Source: a virus (lineage: Duplodnaviria; Heunggongvirae; Uroviricota; Caudoviricetes). From it: 8,892 nucleotides of DNA. The stretch lies in IMG/VR virus record IMGVR_UViG_2534682109_000012; one strand, written 5' to 3'. Positions 1 to 8,892 of this stretch are shown in pieces. Position numbers and translations under genes: made by a program. The notes below the pieces were generated by a model that was given only the letters and a program-made list of their open reading frames with translations, was not told where the DNA came from and made no database searches. The stretch's first letter is position 1, and every line of letters begins with the position of its first letter.

Positions 1-508
1 TTAACCAGTTAACAATTAACGCCGGATACAGAGAATCCCCCCATAACACTGTTTTTGGTTTTAACTGTTCCGCGTGCGCTGAGCCGCATTCACCGCATCA
101 CAAAATTCACTTTTAAAAAAGGGCGGCAGAGCAGTTACGGAGTAAAACTGATACCGCCAAATGTCACCAGAATATTGATAACAGAGGGCGTTGCAGCGGG
201 GTTGTCACTTAAGCGTATGGTCAACCTGACAACCCGGTGTCCTCAACGGGGAAGGAATAACCCCGCCATACTTACCGCCGCGCCATTTCGCGGATTGCCA
301 CAACCGGAAGCGCACGGTCGAATTAAATTTAACGACGGCTCTAAGGGAGAAGGACTTCGCCGTGCACTTTCGTGTTATGCCCTGACTTTTCAGGGATATA
401 TCCTTTCAGTAAACTGTCAGTGCCGGATTCTTATCTGTGTCCGGCGCACGACCACACGTAGCAGCGTGTTGGTCTCCATTTTTAATTCAGCCCTTAATGG
501 AGGATAAA

Positions 509-694
509 ATGCCAAACAAACCATGCCCTGCCTGTAACGCTCTTTCTGGCTTTTTAGAGAAGGGCGGTTATTACATTTTTAACTGTCCAGAACATGTTGA
601 ATTTCATATATCAAAACTTGACAGTATCATTACAAAGCCAAATCAGTATCAGTCTGATTTACTGAATAAAGAGTTAAACGCCGCCCGAGATTAA
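509..694 (+). CDS. Small hypothetical protein (61 aa) with a CxxC...CxxH zinc-ribbon-like motif
   Basis: ATG at 509 preceded by GGAGG (499-503) at 5 nt spacing; ORF runs to TAA at 692-694. Translation MPNKPCPACNALSGFLEKGGYYIFNCPEHVEF... carries CPAC and CPEH pairs about 16 residues apart. The longer track ORF from 437 has no RBS and is probably an over-extension. No family recognised. Confidence 0.5.
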   Translation: MPNKPCPACNALSGFLEKGGYYIFNCPEHVEFHISKLDSIITKPNQYQSDLLNKELNAARD

Positions 695-880
695 GGGCGT
701 AGTGGCCCATTAAAAATATTGCAAAGACCAACTATTGTTGAACTGGATTAAACCAGTAATTCTCTATTGCTCTTATTGTTACCATCGGATGATTGCCGGG
801 GGTTATTTTAAGTTCGGGAGGAAAAGGCTCTCCATCAGCAGCCATCATTGAGTATGTGAAATCCGCCGACGCAGTCCCTT

Positions 881-1270
881 TCATGATAATTCCGAATTTT
901 TCAAGTAATGAGAGCAGTTCCGGTAATCCTGTGTCATCTGAATAACTTTCCTCATAGAAAGAAGCGATTGCCGCAGGAGATGACAGTTCTCGCTCTGCAA
1001 TTTTTTTGTAGTTTTCCAGAATTCTTTTTTTGAATACTTTTCCTCGACATGAAAACCCATCACCGAGGCAATCCGCTTTGCAGTTTCTTCAGTATTCTGG
1101 TTGTTTGTTACCGAAACAGAGTACAATCCGGTAAACGCATCGCGCACATTACGAGCCATATTATCAATGTATTTCTTCGTTGCAGATTCTAATTCAACTT
1201 CGTTCAGACGTTGGTGAAGTGCATGTGCTGCAATTTCCTGGATTTCTTTTAGTAAATCTTTAAATTCCAT
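881..1270 (-). CDS. Hypothetical protein (129 aa), last gene of the leftward early operon
   Basis: ATG (complement of 1268-1270) preceded on the minus strand by GGAG; it starts 11 nt after the stop of the upstream 42-aa gene. Only long ORF in this interval; no family recognised. Confidence 0.55.
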   Translation of the reverse strand: MEFKDLLKEIQEIAAHALHQRLNEVELESATKKYIDNMARNVRDAFTGLYSVSVTNNQNTEETAKRIASVMGFHVEEKYSKKEFWKTTKKLQSENCHLLRQSLLSMRKVIQMTQDYRNCSHYLKNSELS

Positions 1271-1281
1271 CTTTAACTCCG

Positions 1282-1410
1282 TTAGTCGTTAGATTTTGCC
1301 GAACTGGAAAGCGCCTGTTTAAACTCACTGAAGCTGAGAGCTTCCTCGCCTTCGGCAAGGCCTTCGAAGTATTCTTCGTAAGCCTTTTCCATGATTGTGT
1401 CGAAATCCAT
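1282..1410 (-). CDS. Small acidic hypothetical protein (42 aa); size and position resemble Rac-prophage YdaG-type small proteins
   Basis: Hand translation of the minus strand gives MDFDTIMEKAYEEYFEGLAEGEEALSFSEFKQALSSSAKSND. ATG is preceded by AGGTGA at 5 nt and lies 1 nt after the TGA of the upstream 51-aa gene (TGA-t-ATG), a tight coupling that argues for a real gene despite the small size. Not in the ORF track because it is shorter than the track cutoff. Confidence 0.45.
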   Translation of the reverse strand: MDFDTIMEKAYEEYFEGLAEGEEALSFSEFKQALSSSAKSND

Positions 1411-1411
1411 A

Positions 1412-1567
1412 TCACTCACCTGAGTTTCTTTCCAGCCAGCGACGGGCACCATTTTCGGTTTTAAACGTTTTGCTTTTGGTATACGTCATCGCGGTGAATG
1501 TACCGTCCTGGTTGGGAAACACGCCGTACACCAGAGATTCGTTGTTGCCAAGATCGATAGTATCCAT
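1412..1567 (-). CDS. Small hypothetical protein (51 aa); size and position resemble Rac-prophage YdaF-type small proteins
   Basis: Internal ATG (complement of 1565-1567) of track ORF 1412..1606, giving MDTIDLGNNESLVYGVFPNQDGTFTAMTYTKSKTFKTENGARRWLERNSGE; preceded by GAGGT at 4 nt. The track start at 1606 is a TTG without an RBS. Confidence 0.5.
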   Translation of the reverse strand: MDTIDLGNNESLVYGVFPNQDGTFTAMTYTKSKTFKTENGARRWLERNSGE

Positions 1568-1623
1568 GTTGACCTCATTTCCCCTTAACGCCGGGTAGCG
1601 GAACAAAAACCTGCTGCATAGTT

Positions 1624-1652
1624 ATTAAAGTTGAACCCTGCCGTCATGTTCA
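1624..1652 (-). promoter_or_regulatory. Candidate sigma70 promoter for the leftward small-gene operon
   Basis: On the minus strand: -35-like TGAACA (complement of 1647-1652), 17-bp spacer, -10-like TTTAAT (complement of 1624-1629), about 55 nt upstream of the 51-aa gene start. Hexamer matching only; speculative. Confidence 0.2.
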
Positions 1653-1754
1653 TACGCCTCGGGCTGGCTACTTACCCCCTGACCACTGCTTGGTAACTCG
1701 AAGTATTGCCCGGCGTTCTGTGGGGCGGGGTGGGTGGTTGGTGTATGTAATCTA

Positions 1755-1792
1755 CAATTAAAAACTGTTTTTGTGTCAACAGTTTTTAATTG
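1755..1792. promoter_or_regulatory. 38-bp perfect palindrome (15-bp arms CAATTAAAAACTGTT / AACAGTTTTTAATTG, 8-bp spacer); candidate distal operator (OL-like)
   Basis: Read directly: 1755-1769 is the exact reverse complement of 1778-1792. It shares the core AAAAACTGT / ACAGTTTTT with the palindrome at 2791-2825 in the divergent promoter region. On the minus strand the spacer and arm contain a perfect TTGACA (complement of 1774-1779). Confidence 0.5.
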
Positions 1793-1803
1793 TTGTTTTG
1801 GGC

Positions 1804-1826
1804 AAAAAAATCCCTCGAAAGAGGGA
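1804..1826 (-). terminator. Rho-independent terminator for the leftward TA operon
   Basis: TCCCTC-GAAA-GAGGGA hairpin (1811-1826, 6-bp stem, GAAA loop); on the minus strand it is followed by a run of 7 T (complement of the A-run at 1804-1810). It lies 18 nt downstream of the toxin stop codon (1845-1847). Confidence 0.55.
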
Positions 1827-1844
1827 GTATGAAAATTGTTCAAC

Positions 1845-2132
1845 TCAGATAGAGAAGGGAAATTGTCGCCGAGAATGTGTCACGCTTACAATCTCAATGC
1901 TTGAAGCAGCTACTCTGTACAGGATTATGTAGTTAGGGTGGGTCACGATCTCTCTCAATCCAGAAACCCGTTCGCTTGGTGGATATAAGTACGGATGCTC
2001 AGATAGAGGTAATACCGATGTTTCAATGCGTATTTTTAGTCTACGTGCTGCCGGTGGGTTCTCCTTGGCGATGTAAGTTATGATCTGGCGCAAATCATCG
2101 CGAGCAGACGGTAGCCATAAAATGGGTAACAT
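1845..2132 (-). CDS. parE2: ParE/RelE-family type II toxin (95 aa), third gene of the regulator-antitoxin-toxin operon
   Basis: Translation MLPILWLPSARDDLRQIITYIAKENPPAARRL...GLREIVTHPNYIILYRVAASSIEIVSVTHSRRQ has the conserved ParE pattern (N-terminal W..A..DL..I..YI, central GLRE, C-terminal NYIILYRV...IEIV.V.H.RR). Its ATG overlaps the antitoxin TAA by one base (TAATG). Symbol by analogy to the paaR2-paaA2-parE2 operon of E. coli O157:H7 prophages, recalled from memory. Confidence 0.8.
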   Translation of the reverse strand: MLPILWLPSARDDLRQIITYIAKENPPAARRLKIRIETSVLPLSEHPYLYPPSERVSGLREIVTHPNYIILYRVAASSIEIVSVTHSRRQFPFSI

Positions 2133-2323
2133 TACTCGCTCTTGTTAGTTACAGCAATTTGAGCAATAAGATTTTCCATTTCAGCCATTACCTCGTCATG
2201 TGGAATTGCGGGGCGAGTGTCTGCAAGGCTTGACGTTACTTTAGTGCGCAACCATTCGTTGTAACTGTTTTCTTGTTCGGTAGTTTCGAATTCTGAAACT
2301 ATCGGAGAAAGGGCTGTACCCAT
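2132..2323 (-). CDS. paaA2: PaaA2-like antitoxin (63 aa) of the three-component TA module
   Basis: Translation MGTALSPIVSEFETTEQENSYNEWLRTKVTSSLADTRPAIPHDEVMAEMENLIAQ matches my recollection of the PaaA2 antitoxin (63 aa). It sits immediately upstream of and overlapping the ParE gene; GAGGAG lies 7 nt before the ATG. Confidence 0.75.
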   Translation of the reverse strand: MGTALSPIVSEFETTEQENSYNEWLRTKVTSSLADTRPAIPHDEVMAEMENLIAQIAVTNKSE

Positions 2324-2350
2324 GGCATAACTCCTCTTCTTGTACTGTGG

Positions 2351-2752
2351 TCACGCCCGGCGGCTTTTTTGTGCCGCCAGCCACCTAGCAATGGTTTCTT
2401 CCATTGATTTTTTCTTGTCTTTGATTTCTTGAAGCATTTTTTCTTGGTCTTCCTCAGGAAACGCACTAAAAGCTTGGAGCAGTTCGCGTTGGCGAGGACC
2501 AATTTTCATCGTGTCAGGGGTGAAAATTTGCTCACACTCTTCAGGAGGCAATAAAAACCAATGCAATGGATGCCCTGAAACCTCAACCAGTTTATCCAAA
2601 CTTGAGGCTTTAGGTGTAGCCTTACCGCTGACCCATTGTTGAACAGTTTGTTGTGTCACACCAATTCTACGGGCAAGCTCAGCCTGGCTCCATCCAGTTT
2701 CCTGAAGAAGCTTGCTGATTCTGTACATAGATACTTCTAGGGCGCTCATCAT
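2351..2752 (-). CDS. paaR2: HTH (XRE/DicA-like) transcriptional regulator, PaaR2-like; CI-equivalent repressor of the immunity region
   Basis: Helix-turn-helix WSQAELARRIGVTQQTVQQWVSGKATP; the C-terminal LPPEE...RELLQAFSAFPEEDQEKMLQEIK segment resembles the DicA C-terminus, and there is no S24 peptidase domain. It is divergent from the Cro-like gene and first gene of the TA operon. The start is ambiguous (ATG at 2752 or 2749, neither with an SD), possibly leaderless. Confidence 0.8.
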   Translation of the reverse strand: MMSALEVSMYRISKLLQETGWSQAELARRIGVTQQTVQQWVSGKATPKASSLDKLVEVSGHPLHWFLLPPEECEQIFTPDTMKIGPRQRELLQAFSAFPEEDQEKMLQEIKDKKKSMEETIARWLAAQKSRRA

Positions 2753-2760
2753 TATTCAAT

Positions 2761-2766
2761 TTTACA
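2761..2766 (-). promoter_or_regulatory. Candidate -10 element (TAAAAT) for a leaderless regulator transcript
   Basis: On the minus strand TAAAAT lies 8 nt upstream of the regulator ATG and no SD is present, reminiscent of lambda pRM / cI. The -35 is weak. Speculative. Confidence 0.2.
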
Positions 2767-2790
2767 GGTAAATACTGTTAAAAGCATCAC

Positions 2791-2825
2791 AATAAAAAAC
2801 TGTTGATTGCATACAGTTTTTTATT
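2791..2825. promoter_or_regulatory. 35-bp perfect palindrome (13-bp arms AATAAAAAACTGT / ACAGTTTTTTATT, 9-bp spacer); candidate OR-like operator in the divergent promoter region
   Basis: Read directly: 2791-2803 is the reverse complement of 2813-2825. It lies between the divergent regulator and Cro-like genes, and an extra half-site-like AATACTGTTA sits at 2771-2780. Same core as the 1755-1792 palindrome. Confidence 0.5.
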
Positions 2826-2837
2826 GTAGGCTTTGCT

Positions 2838-2856
2838 TATAGTTTTTAGAGGAGGG
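2838..2856 (+). promoter_or_regulatory. Candidate -10 (TATAGT, 2838-2843) and RBS (GGAGGG, 2851-2856) for the rightward Cro-like operon
   Basis: TATAGT is a 5/6 match to TATAAT and GGAGGG lies 4 nt before the ATG at 2861. The -35 region would overlap the right arm of the palindrome. The short distance from -10 to RBS implies a very short leader; uncertain. Confidence 0.3.
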
Positions 2857-2860
2857 CAAA

Positions 2861-3133
2861 ATGCTAGATAGCACTCGCGAAAAAATTAGGCAGAAATACA
2901 CTCAGGCTGAAATAGGTCGTTATATGGGGGTCGCTCAACAGACTGTTTGGCAATGGTTTAGCTTTGGCGTTCCCCCAAAGCAGGTAATTCCGTTATGCCA
3001 ACTAATGAAGTGGGAAGTTACCCCGCATGAAATCCGCCCAGATATTTATCCTAACCCAACCGACGGTTTACCTGTTGGATGTAAGGTTAACACATCAAAT
3101 GCGCCGGAGTTGATTCATGAAAATCAAGCATGA
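2861..3133 (+). CDS. ydaS: Cro-like HTH DNA-binding protein, YdaS family (90 aa)
   Basis: HTH TQAEIGRYMGVAQQTVWQWFSFGVP followed by the EV..HEIRPDIY motif I associate with the YdaS family. It is divergent from the repressor with a strong RBS. Symbol by synteny and family resemblance, from memory. Confidence 0.7.
   Translation: MLDSTREKIRQKYTQAEIGRYMGVAQQTVWQWFSFGVPPKQVIPLCQLMKWEVTPHEIRPDIYPNPTDGLPVGCKVNTSNAPELIHENQA
3110..3127. promoter_or_regulatory. Perfect inverted repeat TTGATT-N6-AATCAA at the ydaS/ydaT junction; candidate YdaT (CII-like) binding site
   Basis: Read directly: TTGATTcatgaaAATCAA. It overlaps the ydaT start codon (3117-3119). I recall that YdaT of prophage CP-933P was reported to recognise a TTGATT-N6-AATCAA repeat; that recollection is unverified. 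Confidence 0.4.
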
Positions 3134-3542
3134 ACACATCCGCATGGCGATGAATGCCTGGGCGCATCCGGACGGCGAAAAAGTACCGGCTGCGAAAATT
3201 ACCAAAGCGTATTTCGAGCTGGGAATGACGTTCCCGGAACTGTATGACGACAGCCATCCGGAAGCCATGGCTCGCAATACTCAGAAAATTTTCCGCTGGG
3301 TGGAGAAAGACACTCCTGATGCGGTTAAAAAAATTCAGGCGTTGTTACCAGCGATCGAAAAAGCGATGCCGCCTCCGCTGGTGGCCCGAATGCGCAGCCA
3401 CAGTTCCGCTTATTTTCGGGAGTTGGTAGAGACGAAGGAACGGCTGGTGAAAGATATTGATGATTTCGTTGCATCAGCGATCGTTCTGTTCGATCAGATG
3501 AATCGTGGTGGCCCGGCAGGAAACACTCTGGCTGTGCATTAA
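3117..3542 (+). CDS. ydaT: YdaT-like protein (141 aa), proposed CII-functional-equivalent / toxic regulator of Rac-type prophages
   Basis: Second gene of the rightward operon; it overlaps the ydaS 3' end by 17 nt, with GGAG 8 nt upstream of the ATG. Length and position match YdaT of Rac/CP-933P; sequence family recognised from memory only. Confidence 0.7.
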   Translation: MKIKHEHIRMAMNAWAHPDGEKVPAAKITKAYFELGMTFPELYDDSHPEAMARNTQKIFRWVEKDTPDAVKKIQALLPAIEKAMPPPLVARMRSHSSAYFRELVETKERLVKDIDDFVASAIVLFDQMNRGGPAGNTLAVH

Positions 3543-3555
3543 TTGGGTAATAAAT

Positions 3556-4065
3556 ATGAGTAATGACAAAAAATTGACACTGAGCGTTTACGAAAACAGT
3601 CCGCACATCTGGCGTGGCGGTTTATCTGATGTGGAGCTGGCAGAGTGGTTGATACATAAAGCTAATGCGCTGCTCTGGCGTTTGTCAGCCAGAGAACAGC
3701 GCAAGGAAACCAGAATAAAGCTGGCTGATGCAGAAGCGTGTGCCGGGCTTATTGAGGATTATACAAATCTTGGTATTTCTTCAGCAGAGAGTGATCCCAT
3801 TCAGCCTCTGAGCAGGGAGTCAATCCAGCACGCTGGTTGTATGGCACATCTTGTAACTGCTCGTCAACATGAGGTGGGTATTGGATCACTTCCGGCGGGA
3901 TATTCGCTGATTCCAGAGCTGGTTGAAGCAAGAAAATCAGTTCAGAAAAAGAGAGATGACGCACTTCAATTATTGAGAGAGCACTATGGCGCGATACCAG
4001 AATGCGAACAGCGTCGATACCCTGAAGGTTATGAATGGATGCAGTCTCTTTTTGAAGTTCGCTAA
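3556..4065 (+). CDS. Hypothetical protein (169 aa), unknown function
   Basis: Internal ATG of track ORF 3505..4065, chosen because it starts 13 nt after the ydaT stop (the track start would overlap ydaT). The translation is protein-like (MSNDKKLTLSVYENSPHIWRGGLSDVELAEWLIHKANALLWRL...). No family recognised; weak SD. Confidence 0.5.
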   Translation: MSNDKKLTLSVYENSPHIWRGGLSDVELAEWLIHKANALLWRLSAREQRKETRIKLADAEACAGLIEDYTNLGISSAESDPIQPLSRESIQHAGCMAHLVTARQHEVGIGSLPAGYSLIPELVEARKSVQKKRDDALQLLREHYGAIPECEQRRYPEGYEWMQSLFEVR

Positions 4066-4282
4066 TCAATATGTCGAGACGAAGGTATGTTTCGGCGCGC
4101 AGCCAGGCTCTGTAATCCGGGAGCATTTCGGGGCTGTTACACCAGCGGTTTGTTGCTGCAACATTTAATACATGAGCCTGATAAAGGCTTTTCAAAAAAT
4201 ACATGTCGAACCTCCTCTGGTTCTGTCGATTGGGAACCACAGATTATATCCGGAGGAAGGTTCGGCACCAGATGAGGTAGCC

Positions 4283-5374
4283 ATGCGTGATTACGCAAAA
4301 GTTTCTCCGCGATTCTGGCTGGGAGAAACGGGGAGAGAACTTAGAAAGGCGGGTGCAGAAGCGCAAGTTGTTGCTTTTTACCTGATGACATCCCCTCACG
4401 CAAATATGCTGGGTTTGTATTACCTGCCAGTTTTATACCTTGCTCATGAAACCGGGCTTGGTCTGGAAGGGGCTTCAAAGGGGCTTAAAAGGGCTGTTGA
4501 AGCTGGTTTTTGTAGCTATGACCATGATGCAGAGATGGTCTGGGTCCATGAAATGGCAGCCTGGCAGGTTGGGGAAACGTTGAAGCCTGGCGATAACCGT
4601 TGTGCAGGTGTCAGGAATGAGTATGCATCATTACCTGAAAACGCTTTTCTGTCAGTGTTTTACGACAGATATAAAACGGATTTCCATCTGGATGTGAGGC
4701 GGAATAATAGCCGAAATTCGGTAAGGGGCTTCGAAGGGGCTTTTAAGGGGCTTCGAAGCCAAGAACAGGAACAGGAGCAGGAGAAAGAACAGGAACAGGA
4801 CAAAAACACTATGGTTCATGGCAAAAAAAACACCACGAACCAGGCAGGGGATGTTCAGACCGTCAATCCTGGTCAGCCAGCAGGCACGACACCGGAAGCC
4901 GATTCGGGCGCTGTGCAGCAGGTGATGACCGCAGGGTCGGAGCAATCACACCAACTGCAGCAGCCTGAAGCCGATTCCGCCATTCAGCGGGAAGCCGATC
5001 GGGTAGTCCCGGAAAGCACCGGGCAGTCTGTGGGACGAGTGGATTATCCGGATGTGTTCGAACAGGTCTGGCGGGAATACCCGTTGCGTGCTGGGGCAAA
5101 CCCGAAGAAATCCGCTTTCAGTGCCTGGAAGGCCAGATTGCGCGAGGGGGTGCCACCAGAGACCATGCTGGATGGTGTGAGGCGTTACGCGAGATACCTG
5201 GCGGCGACCGGGAAAGCGGGAACGGAATTTGTTCAGCGAGCGACGACGTTTTTTGGGCCGGACCGGAATTTTGAAAACCCCTGGTTGCTCCCGGTAAGCG
5301 GCACGAACAACCAGCGTTGTGTGAATCATATTTCTGAACCGGATACCGAAATTCCGCCGGGATTCAGGGGGTGA
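4283..5374 (+). CDS. Phage replication initiator / replisome-organiser-like protein (363 aa from this start)
   Basis: ATG at 4283 preceded by GAGGT at 4 nt (the track start at 4172 has no RBS but cannot be excluded). The C-terminal segment FEQVWREYPLRAGANPKKSAFSAWKARL...G resembles the F..FW..YP.K..K..A...W motif of phage replisome-organiser domains. It lies directly upstream of the DnaC-like gene, contains internal iteron-like DNA repeats, and its stop overlaps the dnaC-like RBS region. Confidence 0.65.
   Translation: MRDYAKVSPRFWLGETGRELRKAGAEAQVVAFYLMTSPHANMLGLYYLPVLYLAHETGLGLEGASKGLKRAVEAGFCSYDHDAEMVWVHEMAAWQVGETLKPGDNRCAGVRNEYASLPENAFLSVFYDRYKTDFHLDVRRNNSRNSVRGFEGAFKGLRSQEQEQEQEKEQEQDKNTMVHGKKNTTNQAGDVQTVNPGQPAGTTPEADSGAVQQVMTAGSEQSHQLQQPEADSAIQREADRVVPESTGQSVGRVDYPDVFEQVWREYPLRAGANPKKSAFSAWKARLREGVPPETMLDGVRRYARYLAATGKAGTEFVQRATTFFGPDRNFENPWLLPVSGTNNQRCVNHISEPDTEIPPGFRG
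4467..4496. repeat. Cluster A of 11-bp-phased direct repeats AAGGGGCTT (2 perfect copies plus 1 degenerate)
   Basis: Copies at 4467-4475 and 4478-4486, with a degenerate AAGGGCTG at 4489-4496; the spacing is exactly 11 bp. Lies inside the initiator gene (peptide EGASKGLKRAVEAGF). Confidence 0.6.
4723..4760. repeat. Cluster B of 11-bp-phased direct repeats AAGGGGCTT (3 perfect copies) ending in the palindrome GGCTTCGAAGCC
   Basis: Copies at 4723-4731, 4734-4742 and 4745-4753, 11 bp apart; the palindrome GGCTTCGAAGCC is at 4749-4760. Cluster B is 256 bp downstream of cluster A and inside the initiator gene (peptide RGFEGAFKGLRSQ). Candidate ori iterons. Confidence 0.6.
4763..4801 (+). repeat. 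GAACAG/GAGCAG hexanucleotide tandem repeat encoding an EQEQEQEKEQEQD acidic linker
   Basis: Read directly: GAA CAG GAA CAG GAG CAG GAG AAA GAA CAG GAA CAG GAC, in frame with the initiator gene and immediately after repeat cluster B; followed by an A-rich stretch. Confidence 0.7.
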
Positions 5375-5380
5375 TGTGGC

Positions 5381-6127
5381 ATGAAAAACATTGCGGCAGC
5401 CGGGGTTCTTGAACGTATTCGCAGACTTGCACCACAGGCGTCGGTTCCACCGTACCGGACGGTGGAGGAGTGGCGGGAATGGCAACTTGCTGAAGGACGA
5501 AAACGCAGCGAGGAGATTAACCGCCAGAATCACCAGTTGCGGGTGGAAAAAATCCTGAATCGTTCGGGCATCCAGCCTCTGCACAGCAAATGCTCGTTTG
5601 CGAATTATCAGGTGCAGAACGACGGGCAAAAATACGCGCTGAGCCAGGCCAAATCCATAGCTGACGAACTGATGACCGGGTGCACGAATTTTGTGTTCAG
5701 CGGTAAAACCGGCACCGGGAAAAATCACCTTGCAGCGGCGATGGGTAACCGGCTGATGGCGAAGGGGCGCAGCGTGATTATCGTCACCGTGTCTGATGTC
5801 ATGAGCGTGTTGCATGACAGCTACGACAACGGCAAATCCGGGGAAAAATTTTTACAGGAGCTTTGCAGTGTTGATTTGCTGGTCCTGGATGAAATAGGCG
5901 TTCAGCGGGAGACGAAAAACGAGCAGGTGGTATTACACCAGATAATTGATCGCCGGACAGCATCACTGTGCAGTGTCGGGATGTTAACAAACCTGAATCA
6001 TGCCGCAATGAGTACACTTCTTGGTGAGAGGATTATGGACCGCATGACCATGAACGGTGGTCGATGGGTGACGTTTAACTGGGATAGCTGGCGTCCAAAT
6101 GTCAGCAATATGAGGGTTGTGAAGTAA
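5381..6127 (+). CDS. DnaC-like replicative helicase loader (AAA+ ATPase, 248 aa)
   Basis: Walker A FSGKTGTGKNHLAAAMG and Walker B DLLVLDEIGVQ; long collinear similarity to E. coli DnaC as I recall it (SGKPGTGKNHLAAAI...VDLLVIDEIGVQ...MLTNSN...LGERVMDRM...FNWDSYR). Same length and position as YdaV of Rac. Confidence 0.9.
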   Translation: MKNIAAAGVLERIRRLAPQASVPPYRTVEEWREWQLAEGRKRSEEINRQNHQLRVEKILNRSGIQPLHSKCSFANYQVQNDGQKYALSQAKSIADELMTGCTNFVFSGKTGTGKNHLAAAMGNRLMAKGRSVIIVTVSDVMSVLHDSYDNGKSGEKFLQELCSVDLLVLDEIGVQRETKNEQVVLHQIIDRRTASLCSVGMLTNLNHAAMSTLLGERIMDRMTMNGGRWVTFNWDSWRPNVSNMRVVK

Positions 6128-6148
6128 TTTTGTCCGGAGGAAATTTTA

Positions 6149-6865
6149 ATGGAAACCGTATCTGACGCACTGAAAGCACTGAAAAAAGCCTCTTCACATG
6201 TGGTGGCAGCTCGCCTTGGAATTAGTCGTGAAGAGGCTGTCAACGAACTGTGGAAACTGAAACGCCGTGGAGAAGCGGATAACAAGGGGGCGATATGGTG
6301 GCTGACTCAGGCTGGTGAAAGTGAACCGGTGTCACCGGTACCGAAAGTGACGGCGCAAATGCTGACAGAGGCGATTGAACAACATGGCCCACAAACGGCG
6401 GATGAACTGGCATTGATGTTCGGAATTACCTCCCGCCGGGCGAATTCATCGCTGGCAATGGCAATCAGCAAAGGGTGTCTGATTCGCGTGAATCAGGATG
6501 GTAAATTTCGTTACTGCATACCGGGCGTTGATTTACCGGCAGAGCCGAAAGCAGCATCCGTAGCTGAAACGGAGGGTAAAGCCCTTCCTCAGCCAGCTGG
6601 TGTTGCGTTACCAGTCCAGGAAACGGCTGCACAGGAAGAAATTAAAACAGAAGCGGTGGAGGACATTGTGAAGTTGCAGCAATCGTTCACTGAAGCGAAA
6701 GCAGATGACCTGATTCTACCATCGCTGCATGTGGCTAACCGCGAGCTGCGCCGGGCGAAAAGTAATGTTCAGAAGTGGGAGCGAGTCTGTGCTGCGCTAC
6801 GGGAACTGAACAAACACAGGGATATTCTCCGGGATATTACCGCCACCAGAGAGCAGCAGCGGTGA
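6149..6865 (+). CDS. Hypothetical protein (238 aa) with two N-terminal winged-helix-like segments and a C-terminal charged helical region
   Basis: ATG at 6149 with GGAGG 8 nt upstream. Two similar segments ([25 protein letters not shown] and [37 protein letters not shown]) look like winged-helix DNA-binding motifs. Occupies the position of ydaW-type genes after the DnaC-like gene. Confidence 0.65.
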
Positions 6866-7179: not shown

Positions 7180-7478
7180 GGGTGAGGGTTTATATCGCCG
7201 GTCCGATGACGGGATATGAAAATTTTAACCGCGAGGCATTTCACAAAACGGAAGAGGTGCTGAAACGGGAAGGGCATACCGTTTTAAACCCGGCAGTACT
7301 TCCGGACGGGCTGACTCAGCCACACTACATGGATATTTGCATGGCAATGCTCCGTTGCGTGGATGCGGTTTACATGCTGAAAGGCTGGCAGCAGTCGGCA
7401 GGTGCAGGGGCTGAGCTGGCACTGGAGGAGAAACCGGGCCATGCGGTGATTTTTCAGGAGGTGGGCAGTGAATATTGA
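7176..7478 (+). CDS. DUF4406-like protein (nucleoside 2-deoxyribosyltransferase-like fold), 100 aa
   Basis: N-terminal VYIAGPMTG motif, then NP, and the C-terminal D.VYML.GW..S.GA..E motif characteristic of the DUF4406 / nucleoside 2-deoxyribosyltransferase-like superfamily as I recall it. GTG start (7176, or 7182) with CAGGAGG upstream; overlaps the previous stop. Confidence 0.7.
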   Translation: MRVRVYIAGPMTGYENFNREAFHKTEEVLKREGHTVLNPAVLPDGLTQPHYMDICMAMLRCVDAVYMLKGWQQSAGAGAELALEEKPGHAVIFQEVGSEY

Positions 7479-7785
7479 CCCGGCGATAACGATTGATATG
7501 GCCCTGAACGCCGGCCTGGCACTTCTTGGTTATTTCTACATTATGTTCTGCAGCGGACGATGGCTGTCACTGTTGTTCATGAAAAAATGGAATAAACGCC
7601 GTAAGCAGGAGCAACGCCAGAAGGCAATGGATGCATTTTTCGAAGCCTTCGGAATTGACGGCATGGAACCAGGGGATCCAGCTCGCGCAATCAGCAGAGG
7701 GGGTGTAGTAATCCTTGTATATCGGAGTGAAGAGAAAAATGACGATCACAAAACAACGTGTAGAAGAAATCATATCCCGCATTGA
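7468..7785 (+). CDS. Small predicted single-pass membrane protein (105 aa)
   Basis: GTG start with CAGGAGG 6 nt upstream. N-terminal hydrophobic helix ITIDMALNAGLALLGYFYIMF followed by a basic stretch KKWNKRRKQEQRQK. The 3' end overlaps the next gene by 47 nt, so the true extent is uncertain. Confidence 0.45.
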   Translation: MNIDPAITIDMALNAGLALLGYFYIMFCSGRWLSLLFMKKWNKRRKQEQRQKAMDAFFEAFGIDGMEPGDPARAISRGGVVILVYRSEEKNDDHKTTCRRNHIPH

Positions 7786-8056
7786 AATGTATGGACATGG
7801 TGCAGGGTATATCGCAGACGAGGTTAATGATCTGGCTATACTGGCGCTGAATTTATCAAATATCGCGAACCTGAAGCGATACGAGCTTGATATGGGAGGT
7901 TGCGACTCGTGCGGTCAGGATTGTGGCGCTGATATGACTGAAGATCCTGATGGTGATTATGTCCTGTTTGATGACGTGGTTAAGTTGTTTGAATTTGATA
8001 CAACCACTCAAAAGTTAGAAATCCCGGCAAAGGAGGCAGCCAGTGGGCAAGATTGA
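7739..8056 (+). CDS. Hypothetical acidic protein (105 aa) with a GGCDSCGQDCG Cys cluster
   Basis: Internal ATG at 7739 of track ORF 7715..8056 (the track start is a TTG); GGAG/GAAGAG upstream. No family recognised. Confidence 0.5.
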   Translation: MTITKQRVEEIISRIEMYGHGAGYIADEVNDLAILALNLSNIANLKRYELDMGGCDSCGQDCGADMTEDPDGDYVLFDDVVKLFEFDTTTQKLEIPAKEAASGQD

Positions 8057-8480
8057 CTATCAGGCACTGCGTGAGGCAGCACAAAACTATCAATCGACGC
8101 TGGCGTGGTATCAGGCTACCCCGGACAGCCCAAATGCTGAACGGGATTGTGATGCGGCTCTTGCTGCGTTTAAGCGTCACATCCGTCATCGGGAAGCGGA
8201 TATTATCGCTGATTTGCTGGATGGACTGGAAGAAGCAAAATCACAACTCAACGAGCAGCGTGAGTATTACGAAGGCGTTATCTCTGATGGGAGCAAGCGT
8301 ATTGCTGAACTGGAAGCGCGGGAAGTTCAATTACCGACTCGCTACGACCTTCGATATGGACACCCGATAAATGCAGATGAGCGACATGTCATGATACCTA
8401 AAGAAAATGGCAGTTGGCTTTACCTGATTGACCTAGAACACGCATTACGCGTCGCTGGCATTCGCATCAAAGGAGAGTGA
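8043..8480 (+). CDS. Ead/Ea22-like prophage protein (145 aa), coiled-coil containing
   Basis: GTG start with AAGGAGG 7 nt upstream. The N-terminal IDYQALREAAQ... and central coiled-coil region resemble the Ea22-like family common in E. coli prophages (from memory). Overlaps the previous gene by 14 nt. Confidence 0.5.
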   Translation: MGKIDYQALREAAQNYQSTLAWYQATPDSPNAERDCDAALAAFKRHIRHREADIIADLLDGLEEAKSQLNEQREYYEGVISDGSKRIAELEAREVQLPTRYDLRYGHPINADERHVMIPKENGSWLYLIDLEHALRVAGIRIKGE

Positions 8481-8481
8481 G

Positions 8482-8673
8482 ATGAACGGACAAATATCAA
8501 TTGTTCGACCAGGAGCATGTGACGATCGCGAAATACGAATGATTATTCGTCTGGCGATGGGGAAAACAATAACTGCTCTCATTACTCCAGAAAATCTCGC
8601 ATTAGCATTAACAGGAAAGTCAGACATGCCAGTAGAGCTAAAGCTGCGAAATGTTGAGATTAAGGTGAAATAG
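8482..8673 (+). CDS. Hypothetical protein (63 aa)
   Basis: ATG at 8482 with AGGAG 6 nt upstream, 1 nt after the upstream TGA. No family recognised. Confidence 0.5.
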   Translation: MNGQISIVRPGACDDREIRMIIRLAMGKTITALITPENLALALTGKSDMPVELKLRNVEIKVK

Positions 8674-8675
8674 CT

Positions 8676-8892
8676 ATGACCACTATTACCAAAGATCGAC
8701 TGCTGACAATCCAGCATTGGCGCGAAACATACGGACCGGGTAGCAACGTTGTGCTTCCAGCAGAAGAAGCGGAAGAGCTGGCACGGATTGCGCTGGCATC
8801 ACTGGCAGCAGTATCGGATGAACGAGCAGCCTATGAATTATTTATGGAGAAGCGTTTCGGAGAATCTGTAGATCGCCGCAGAGCAAAAAATG
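8676..8892 (+). CDS. Hypothetical protein, 5' partial CDS running off the window end (at least 72 aa)
   Basis: ATG at 8676 with AAGGTGA 7 nt upstream; open frame with no stop through position 8892 (MTTITKDRLLTIQHWRETYGPGSNVVLPAEEAEELARIALASLAAV...). Absent from the ORF track because it has no stop in the window. Confidence 0.5.
   Translation, partial: MTTITKDRLLTIQHWRETYGPGSNVVLPAEEAEELARIALASLAAVSDERAAYELFMEKRFGESVDRRRAKN

Follow-up and report, generated by a model that had tools for sequence, protein, structure and literature searches.

The 8,892-nucleotide window of viral DNA analysed here very probably carries the already described paaR1-paaA1-parE1 operon of a lambdoid prophage of the Sp4/CP-933M type, an immunity operon in the position of cI in which a two-gene toxin-antitoxin (TA) pair lies behind the repressor. 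PaaR1, PaaA1, ParE1, YdaS and YdaT are 100% identical to the products of ECs_1067-1071 of E. coli O157:H7 Sakai, annotated as belonging to prophage Sp4; ParE1 corresponds to ECs_1067, PaaA1 to ECs_1068, and PaaR1 to ECs_1069 ('phage repressor protein'). At the DNA level, positions 1-6262 of the window are 99.6% identical to Sp4, with a single base difference within 1700-3200, which falls in an OL site (position 1759). The window and Sp4 have the operon in common, whereas from position 6263 onwards the window has a different lambdoid backbone, so that its host strain is not Sakai. Sp4 is located at yccA and equals CP-933M; membership of CP-933M was assigned to the operon by comparison with Sakai Sp4 and then through this equivalence, and a homologue of paaR2-paaA2-parE2 has previously been placed in CP-933M. 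The name paaR1-paaA1-parE1 is taken from secondary sources citing Hallez et al. 2010 (Mol Microbiol 76:719), one of which prints 'paaR1-paaA1-parE3'.

A preliminary description of this DNA had matched the operon to the paaR2-paaA2-parE2 system. The type of system was correctly recognised and had indeed been described, but the copy in the window is the paralogue. Identity with paaR2-paaA2-parE2 was rejected because PaaR2 starts with MQKKE and has only its C-terminus in common with PaaR1 (37% identity overall; BLASTP E-value of 1e-20, carried by the C-terminus), and because the ParE and PaaA proteins are only 67% and 62% identical, respectively. Another locus (L004) yielded the canonical RAE2 proteins: its PaaR2 starts with MQKKE, and its ParE2 and PaaA2 are identical to the PDB chains. 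The paaR2 system of CP-933P/Sp12 (Jurenas et al. 2021, PMC8630535; PDB 3ZBE, 5CW7, 5CZE) resembles that of the window in its gene order and position in the immunity region, its partners ydaS and ydaT, the geometry between the PRM -10 and the ATG, the presence of operators in both OR and OL, the lack of an S24 domain, and the PaaR C-terminal domain. It differs in its operators, which are GTTTAGTAA-type repeats and not ACAR-N7-YTGT, in the N-terminal DNA-binding domain of the regulator and in YdaS (each only 22% identical), and in the diverged C-terminal helix of PaaA, the two pairs reportedly not cross-neutralising. The homology of PaaR1 to PaaR2 is limited to the C-terminal ~50 residues, and the DNA-binding domain, YdaS and the operators belong to a different immunity type.

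The three genes are encoded on the minus strand. In agreement with the preliminary description, open reading frames and Pfam and PDB family matches identified a 133-aa HTH regulator, the presumed prophage repressor (paaR1, 2351..2752), a 63-aa PaaA-family antitoxin (paaA1, 2132..2323), and a 95-aa ParE-family toxin (parE1, 1845..2132). These family matches are much stronger than chance would produce. The reading GAG TAA TG TTA bears out the one-base overlap proposed earlier, base 2132 being common to the paaA1 stop and the parE1 start (TAATG). A GAGGAG Shine-Dalgarno sequence of paaA1 is found at 2336..2331, 7 nt 5' of the antitoxin ATG. Since paaR1 and paaA1 are separated by 27 nt, paaA1 and parE1 overlap by 1 nt, and no minus-strand terminator lies between the genes, the three genes are probably co-transcribed; co-transcription has been shown by experiment only for the paralogous paaR2 operon. 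The terminator predicted at the end of the operon was also found by a consensus scan, as an intrinsic-terminator-like hairpin (UCCCUC-UUUC-GAGGGA) followed by U7 on the minus strand (1804..1826). Its stem (1826..1811) has 6 pairs, 4 of them G-C, with a 4-nt loop, and the T7 run extends to 1804, though the hairpin is weak: the 55-nt stretch has a folding energy of -9.9 kcal/mol, with a z of -1.08 versus shuffles (not significant). The stem is conserved in IHE3034, and a hairpin with a T-run is present at the same position 3' of parE in L002 and L003, two loci of other immunity types with unrelated sequence.

The integrity of these elements bears on whether the operon could be a mere remnant in a defective prophage, devoid of current function. 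Prophages of the Sp4/CP-933M type are regarded as cryptic, and only 1 of 50,697 sequenced phage records contained a homologue of the toxin, namely that of phage Evi, which is of the RAE2 type (67% identity). However, all the ORFs of the operon are intact, start and stop codons are coupled and a Shine-Dalgarno sequence is present, 438 complete E. coli genomes carry the 908-bp operon region with an identity of at least 99%, the operators are conserved between diverged copies, and the paralogous locus is transcribed and acts as an addiction module, all of which makes a relic extremely improbable.

PaaR1 contains an N-terminal HTH of the 434/Cro type at about residues 10-68 (Pfam HTH_3, 2.3e-12). 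As previously proposed, it lacks the S24 domain: Peptidase_S24 was absent from the 18 Pfam matches obtained at E <= 0.01, and the protein is predicted to be a repressor without a RecA-cleavable domain that is not SOS-cleavable. Its best PDB matches were HTH domains of the 434 repressor, with the TQQ..Q recognition-helix residues aligned; no solved PaaR structure was found as a comparator in the PDB search with the regulator. In the 434 repressor, these TQQ..Q residues read ACAA. The C-terminus is DicA/PaaR-like. Residues 11-130 of PaaR1 align with positions 9-131 of 135 of the NCBIfam DicA subfamily profile NF007257 (8.4e-14), with a score of 51.5 bits that is below the curated cutoff of 101, and PaaR1 is 29% identical to K-12 DicA over its full length. 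Identity with PaaR2 reaches 61% in the C-terminal domain (49 aa) versus 22% in the N-terminal domain, and no significant BLASTP alignment between the two proteins was found before residue 37. From these comparisons, PaaR1 is a predicted DicA-like prophage repressor with a recognition helix resembling that of the 434 repressor, and its C-terminal ~50 aa appear to be common to PaaR2 and DicA. This shared domain of PaaR may mediate oligomerisation.

Consistent with such a repressor, the sequence ACAR-N7-YTGT occurs six times in the window versus 0.73 expected, and five of the six matches fall in the two control regions. Three of these 15-bp dyads, revealed by the pattern count, form a candidate OR between paaR1 and ydaS (2764-2778, 2789-2803, and 2813-2827, with 25 and 24 bp between successive starts), and two others (1754-1768 and 1779-1793) form a candidate OL just past the toxin terminator. 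In the homoimmune IHE3034 locus the sites are unchanged, the few changes falling between them. None of the sites occurs in the heteroimmune loci L002-L005, where OR and OL share a repeat particular to each locus. We infer that the ACAR-N7-YTGT sites are the PaaR1 operators, in an OR/OL layout. This operator code, with 15-bp ACAR-N7-YTGT sites read by a 434-like TQQ..Q helix, was not found described in the literature consulted on these systems.

The promoters were assigned by eye and by analogy, and only tentatively, because a consensus promoter scan of 1600-3200 found none of PRM, PR and PL; its sole match, inside parE and on the wrong strand, is unlikely. The candidate PRM (2753..2766, minus strand) consists of an extended -10, TGTAAAAT (2766..2759), followed by 6 nt and then the paaR1 ATG, with no Shine-Dalgarno sequence and no -35, the latter explaining why the scan missed it. 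Since the -10 lies 6 nt from the ATG and a Shine-Dalgarno sequence is lacking, the paaR1 mRNA is probably leaderless and starts at the ATG. This geometry equals that of PRM933P (GATAAT-N6-ATG) in L004, the leaderless start of which has been mapped by experiment in the paaR2 system. A tentative PR for ydaS-ydaT (2803..2832, plus strand), which falls below the threshold of the scan, has a -35 TTGATT (2803-2808), an 18-nt spacer, and a -10 TAGGCT (2827-2832) matching the consensus at 3 of 6 positions; both elements are flanked or overlapped by operator sites, in a layout that parallels the candidate PL. The latter (1749..1793, minus strand), with a -35 TTGACA (1779..1774) and a -10 TAGATT (1754..1749) separated by a 19-nt spacer, outside the range of the consensus scan, may be directed leftward to ydfA, ydfB, and DicF. 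A PL-type promoter with operators has been shown at the equivalent position in CP-933P.

The neighbouring genes place the operon in the cI slot, as the preliminary description had suggested. To its right lie ydaS (2861..3133, plus strand), which is divergent from paaR1 and encodes a Cro-like regulator (Pfam YdaS_toxin, 8e-10; PHROG transcriptional repressor, 9e-29), ydaT (3117..3542, plus strand), encoding a CII-like activator (Pfam YdaT_toxin, 1.2e-9; PHROG CII-like activator, 4.3e-46), and DnaD/O-like and DnaC-like replication genes. To its left lie ydfA, ydfB, and DicF, with the integrase, the exonuclease, and dicB further left in the identical Sp4 context. The window thus contains the divergent Cro-/CII-like genes, the five sites shared between OR and OL, and the replication genes on the right that characterise a lambdoid immunity region. 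YdaT is 79% identical to that of CP-933P versus only 22% for YdaS, which is the Cro analogue in CP-933P. An exact YdaT site, TTGATT-N6-AATCAA (TTGATTCATGAAAATCAA), was found with zero mismatches at 3110..3127, across the end of ydaS and the start of ydaT, using the recognition motif published in PMC9986795. By analogy with PRE933P, a YdaT-activated promoter located between ydaS and ydaT, it is presumably a PRE-type activation site.

Two known systems resemble this organisation. In the Qin prophage of K-12, dicA-dicC has the same left neighbours, ydfA (51/51 aa identical), ydfB, and the DicF RNA; however, dicA is directly followed by ydfA with no TA pair between, and the Cro-like DicC is only 20% identical to the YdaS of the window. 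The cI-rexA-rexB operon of lambda is likewise a leftward repressor operon with accessory genes expressed in the lysogen, ending before OL/PL, with a leaderless repressor mRNA (mapped, for the present family, in the paaR2 paralogue), operators in OR and OL, and divergent Cro-/CII-like genes. It differs in that PaaR1 resembles CI in sequence only in the HTH and lacks the S24 autocleavage domain, and in that the passenger genes are rexAB in lambda and a TA pair in the window.

The antitoxin PaaA1 matched Pfam PaaA2 (PF21217; 5.6e-19), the sole Pfam match in its 63 aa, and PaaA2 in PDB 3zbe/5cw7 (1.4e-20). Conservation with PaaA2 extends over the N-terminal two thirds of the protein, the C-terminal ~18 aa having diverged. 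The toxin ParE1 showed significant similarity to ParE/RelE-fold toxins, as had been expected, matching Pfam ParE_toxin (PF05016; 2.9e-17) and ParE2 (PDB 5cw7_B; 3e-36). According to reviews citing Hallez 2010, O157:H7 has two paralogous systems, ParE is toxic and is neutralised by its cognate PaaA only, and PaaA1 and PaaA2 do not cross-neutralise. Compared with the canonical parDE systems (RK2, Caulobacter, Vibrio), the window has the same ParE-fold toxin and a small labile antitoxin protein encoded immediately upstream. However, ParD has a ribbon-helix-helix DNA-binding domain, which PaaA-family antitoxins, including PaaA1, lack, transcription of the operon of the window would be under a phage repressor network, and gyrase is not established as the target of the ParE2 branch.

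ParE1 might instead be a ribosome-dependent mRNA endonuclease like RelE that does not act on DNA topology. PF05016 spans both RelE and ParE, the sole NCBIfam match of ParE1 is RelE/StbE, just above the cutoff (28.4 versus 27.9 bits), and ParE2 reportedly neither binds GyrA59 nor inhibits gyrase. ParE1 is, however, 67% identical to ParE2, the overexpression of which induces SOS and which co-localises with the nucleoid, phenotypes of DNA damage rather than of translation arrest, and we consider a RelE-like activity very unlikely.

As the literature calls the system 'three-component', PaaR1 might be viewed as a dedicated third component of the TA system, the split-off DNA-binding half of the antitoxin, and not as a general prophage repressor. 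The location of paaR1 directly upstream of the TA pair, with which it is probably co-transcribed, and the occurrence of the PaaR C-terminal domain together with the pair in different immunity types would fit this idea. It is nevertheless very improbable in view of the loci from other species, in which ParE is encoded directly downstream of PaaA in 71 of 80 cases: none of the 80 has a homologue of the PaaR C-terminal domain or any other PaaR-like gene, and no upstream gene is conserved. Moreover, PaaR1 aligns over its full length with DicA, the gene of which has the same neighbours in Qin and no TA pair, putative PaaR1 operators at OL also precede ydfA and DicF, and PaaR2 represses primarily ydaS-ydaT. 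Judging from these loci, paaA-parE outside E. coli consists of just two genes and lacks PaaR, and the TA pair of the prophage looks like a captured module of this kind. The 'third component' is thus the phage repressor, and the TA pair occupies a rexAB-like slot. The largest cluster of upstream genes in the other species corresponds to lepA synteny in five sphingomonad loci.

This slot raises the question of what the TA pair does there. An anti-phage role has been considered, in which paaA1-parE1 would mainly be a lysogen-expressed abortive infection or exclusion module like rexAB and not an addiction module. ParE1 would be set free, and the infection aborted, when an infection shut off host transcription or led to the degradation of PaaA1. 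The pair does lie in the rexAB slot, with the repressor gene on one side and OL/PL on the other, and is probably co-transcribed with the repressor; single-cell work on the paralogue saw no ParE2 activity in either transcriptional state, and its authors leave the role of the system open. An anti-phage role is also compatible with addiction, and not exclusive of it. On the other hand, PaaA1 and ParE1 match no PADLOC defence model and the regulator gave only generic HTH matches, no phage-defence phenotype was found reported in the literature consulted on these systems, and plasmid stabilisation has been shown for the paralogous paaR2 locus. A mainly anti-phage function therefore seems unlikely. 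[quoted passage not shown] It is conceivable, though we regard it as rather doubtful, that the pair guards the immunity type in an allele-specific manner by killing recombinants in which a heteroimmune region has brought in a non-cognate antitoxin, and that it perhaps also provides a rexAB-like defence.

We favour a repressor operon with an addiction module. PaaR1 would bind ACAR-N7-YTGT at the three sites of OR and the two of OL, about 1 kb away, repress the rightward ydaS-ydaT and leftward ydfA-DicF promoters, and modulate its own promoter. The same transcript would carry paaA1, translated from its own Shine-Dalgarno sequence, and parE1, translated by coupling through TAATG, and would stop at 1826..1804. 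As one transcript carries all three genes, a lysogen would make antitoxin and toxin whenever the repressor is made. PaaA1, without a DNA-binding domain, would wrap ParE1 and neutralise it, its diverged C-terminal helix insulating the pair from PaaA2-ParE2. If the region were lost or replaced, the labile PaaA1 would decay and ParE1 would harm DNA metabolism and induce SOS, so that the TA pair would stabilise the prophage immunity region. YdaS would compete at the operators and YdaT would activate the PRE-type promoter at TTGATT-N6-AATCAA, together forming a bistable switch. For repression, the leaderless start, bistability, addiction, antitoxin lability, and the lack of cross-neutralisation, this model draws on work on the paralogue or on reviews; the gene anatomy, families, Sp4 identity, operator repeats, YdaT site, and mosaic structure come from the present sequence analysis, and the operators and promoters were deduced from it.

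These results have consequences for annotation. The name paaR1-paaA1-parE1 should replace paaR2-paaA2-parE2 for this locus. Three existing labels mislead in this context, 'RelB family antitoxin' and 'toxin YdaT' in RefSeq and 'YdaS_toxin' in Pfam: the antitoxin PaaA1 belongs to the PaaA family, whereas YdaS and YdaT are regulators of the Cro/CII-like kind. The questions that the operon raises have already been posed by published work on the paralogue. As anticipated in the preliminary description, the operon fixes the biology of the window, which would be that of the immunity region of an Sp4/CP-933M-type prophage, with a repressor predicted not to be SOS-cleavable and a lysogenic operon that carries an addiction module.

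Three consecutive minus-strand ORFs occupy 1845-2752, exactly where the preliminary description placed them: a regulator (2752..2351, 133 aa), an antitoxin (2323..2132, 63 aa, preceded 7 nt upstream by GAGGAG) and a toxin (2132..1845, 95 aa). The antitoxin stop and toxin start overlap as reported (AGC GAG TAA TG TTA CCC), base 2132 being common to both. The family assignments were reproduced by database searches. The 95-aa protein resembles ParE/RelE-fold toxins, with hits to Pfam ParE_toxin (2.9e-17) and to E. coli O157 ParE2, for which a crystal structure exists (PDB 5cw7_B, 3e-36). The 63-aa antitoxin was assigned from its hits to Pfam PaaA2 (5.6e-19) and PDB PaaA2 (3zbe, 1.4e-20). As predicted, the regulator gave an HTH_3 hit in Pfam and none to the S24 peptidase; its nearest solved structures are 434 repressor DNA-binding domains. 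The terminator proposed at 1804-1826 was recovered in a scan as a terminator-like stem (1826..1811) followed by T7 to 1804; the hairpin is short, and its fold is not significant relative to shuffled sequences (z = -1.08). The stem is retained in a diverged copy (E. coli IHE3034), and a hairpin and T-run of unrelated sequence are found at the same position in two loci of other immunity types (L002 and L003).

Many O157:H7 chromosomes match 1700-3200 with 100% identity, and in them the locus sits in a lambdoid prophage adjoining yccA that is annotated as Sp4 in strain Sakai. All five immunity proteins (ParE, PaaA, the regulator, YdaS and YdaT) are identical to Sakai ECs_1067-1071. The counterpart in EDL933 of Sp4, located at yccA, is CP-933M, where a homologue of the paaR2-paaA2-parE2 system of CP-933P was previously described (Jurenas et al. 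2021, PMC8630535). The canonical CP-933P locus (L004), recognised by a PaaR2 beginning MQKKE, as sequenced previously, and by ParE2 and PaaA2 sequences equal to those in the PDB, was used as reference. All three proteins are related to it, with identities of 67% for ParE, 62% for PaaA and 37% for the regulator (BLASTP 1e-20), the latter falling to 22% in the N-terminal domain and reaching 61% over the last 49 residues; YdaS and YdaT show 22% and 79% identity. Because of these values, identity with paaR2-paaA2-parE2 was rejected, and sequence comparison designates the locus as paaR1-paaA1-parE1, a name misprinted in one secondary source. The earlier observation is confirmed and its interpretation supported. 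The system is of the paaR-paaA-parE kind and already known; the correction concerns the copy, which is paralogue 1 and differs in immunity specificity.

The placement of the operon in the cI slot also held, with Cro-like ydaS, CII-like ydaT and the DnaD/O-like and DnaC-like replication genes on its right, and ydfA, ydfB and DicF on its left. Judging from its relatives, the regulator is most probably a prophage repressor. It has a full-length match to the NCBIfam DicA subfamily (8.4e-14, scoring under the curated cutoff), is 29% identical to K-12 DicA, and has a C-terminal ELL..F.A.PE..Q motif in common with DicA and PaaR2. In Qin, dicA is directly followed by ydfA, ydfB, dicF and dicB. The left neighbours are alike in the window (ydfA 51/51 aa identical, ydfA-ydfB DNA 97% identical), but in the window, unlike in Qin, paaA-parE is placed between the repressor gene and ydfA, and therefore lies in the slot that rexAB occupies behind lambda cI. 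A full-length DicF small RNA gene was detected at 121-172 on the minus strand (Rfam RF00039, 76.9 bits; gathering score 48). Its position, downstream of the candidate PL, parallels that in Qin.

The 908-bp operon was found, at any identity level, in 833 of 5,426 complete E. coli genomes, with at least 99% identity in 438, and the paaR2 type in 624; a search of 50,697 phage records gave a single record with a toxin homologue. A mosaic emerged when the locus was compared, in a sliding analysis, with three other immunity types. Near-identity in ydfA falls at OL and the terminator, parE, paaA and the PaaR C-terminal domain show roughly 40-85% identity, the PaaR N-terminal domain, OR and the ydaS N-terminus have almost no similarity, and similarity returns from the ydaS C-terminus through ydaT. 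The E. coli IHE3034 copy is homoimmune with the window (regulator 130/133 and YdaS 88/90 aa identical). Its toxin allele is clearly different (ParE 81/95 and PaaA 57/63 identical to the proteins of window 1845-3133), and toxin-antitoxin alleles thus reassort within one immunity type. Further mosaicism was observed around a joint at ~6262: the segment 1-6262 is 99.6-99.7% identical to Sp4-type prophages, and the right end (7455-8892) resembles Stx1a-converting phages at 96% identity. No single piece of any complete E. coli genome covers more than 70% of the window.

Six matches to the motif ACAR-N7-YTGT were counted in the window, against an expectation of 0.73. Three candidate operators lie in the 108-bp paaR-ydaS spacer (2764, 2789 and 2813) and two just past the terminator (1754 and 1779), with a spacing of 24-25 bp resembling that of lambda OR1-3. 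The sole DNA difference from Sakai Sp4 within 1700-3200 falls at 1759 (T, A in Sakai), and the Sakai base makes the OL site 1754-1768 identical to the OR site 2789-2803. All five sites are unchanged in IHE3034, whose few substitutions fall between them. Neither Qin nor any of the three heteroimmune loci contains them, and the OR and OL of each heteroimmune locus share a repeat particular to that locus. In 434, residues TQQ..Q read ACAA half-sites; the regulator retains these recognition-helix residues, in keeping with the ACAR half-sites.

Promoter assignments are tentative, because a consensus scan found none of PRM, PR and PL. A candidate PRM -10 (TGTAAAAT, 2766..2759, minus strand) is followed by 6 nt and then ATG, with no Shine-Dalgarno, a geometry identical to that of the mapped, leaderless PRM933P of CP-933P. 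In L003, another heteroimmune locus, the PaaR-like gene has perhaps been annotated three codons too short at its start. Within 3888-3910 of that locus, an ATG in frame follows a TGTAAAAT -10 by exactly 6 nt, in the leaderless geometry common to the window and CP-933P. Candidate PR (TTGATT-N18-TAGGCT) and PL (TTGACA-N19-TAGATT) lie at 2803-2832 and 1779..1749. A predicted YdaT site at 3110-3127 (TTGATTCATGAAAATCAA) exactly matches the published palindrome TTGATT-N6-AATCAA, at a position matching the YdaT-activated PRE of CP-933P. It spans the ydaT start, whose codon lies inside the 6-nt spacer, and YdaT binding would therefore overlap the ydaT translation start. These operator and promoter proposals are an addition made here for this immunity type.

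Between ydaT and the replication gene, a leftward ORF (3749-4240, minus strand; RefSeq 'ECs1072 family phage-associated protein') opposes the early right operon and matched no PHROG at E <= 1e-5. The O/DnaD-like replication gene contains internal repeats at 4467-4493, 4723-4758 and 4763-4808, two of which are arrays of 11-bp units (AAGGGGCTTAA and AAGGGGCTTCG); a GAACAG hexamer array encodes a QEQEQE linker. These arrays may be origin iterons.

By analogy with the paralogue, PaaR would repress ydaS-ydaT and PL and tune its own promoter, YdaS would compete for the same region and YdaT would activate PRE, making the locus bistable; the RecA-cleavage motif is absent from the regulator. PaaA is described as labile via ClpAP/ClpXP, devoid of a DNA-binding domain and cooperative in ParE binding, and ParE2 as inducing SOS and co-localising with the nucleoid (PMC8630535). 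ParE2 reportedly neither binds GyrA59 nor inhibits gyrase. The paralogous locus stabilised an unstable plasmid, and its authors proposed that it keeps the immunity region from being lost or recombined (PMC8630535).

PaaA-ParE pairs are widespread elsewhere. Among contigs taken from one genome per species, PaaA relatives (50-77% identity across the first ~55 residues) are encoded at 80 loci of other species, in hosts including Bartonella, Acidithiobacillus, Halomonas, Pseudomonas, sphingomonads and Serratia. One Acidithiobacillus plasmid carries two PaaA-ParE copies. ParE lies directly downstream in 71 of the 80, none has a PaaR C-terminal-domain homologue, and no upstream gene is conserved across them; paaA-parE is therefore ordinarily a two-gene module. 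This two-gene status elsewhere is the other addition made here. Capture behind a DicA-type repressor gene, an idea already raised by Jurenas et al. (PMC8630535), is what gives the system its 'three-component' status.
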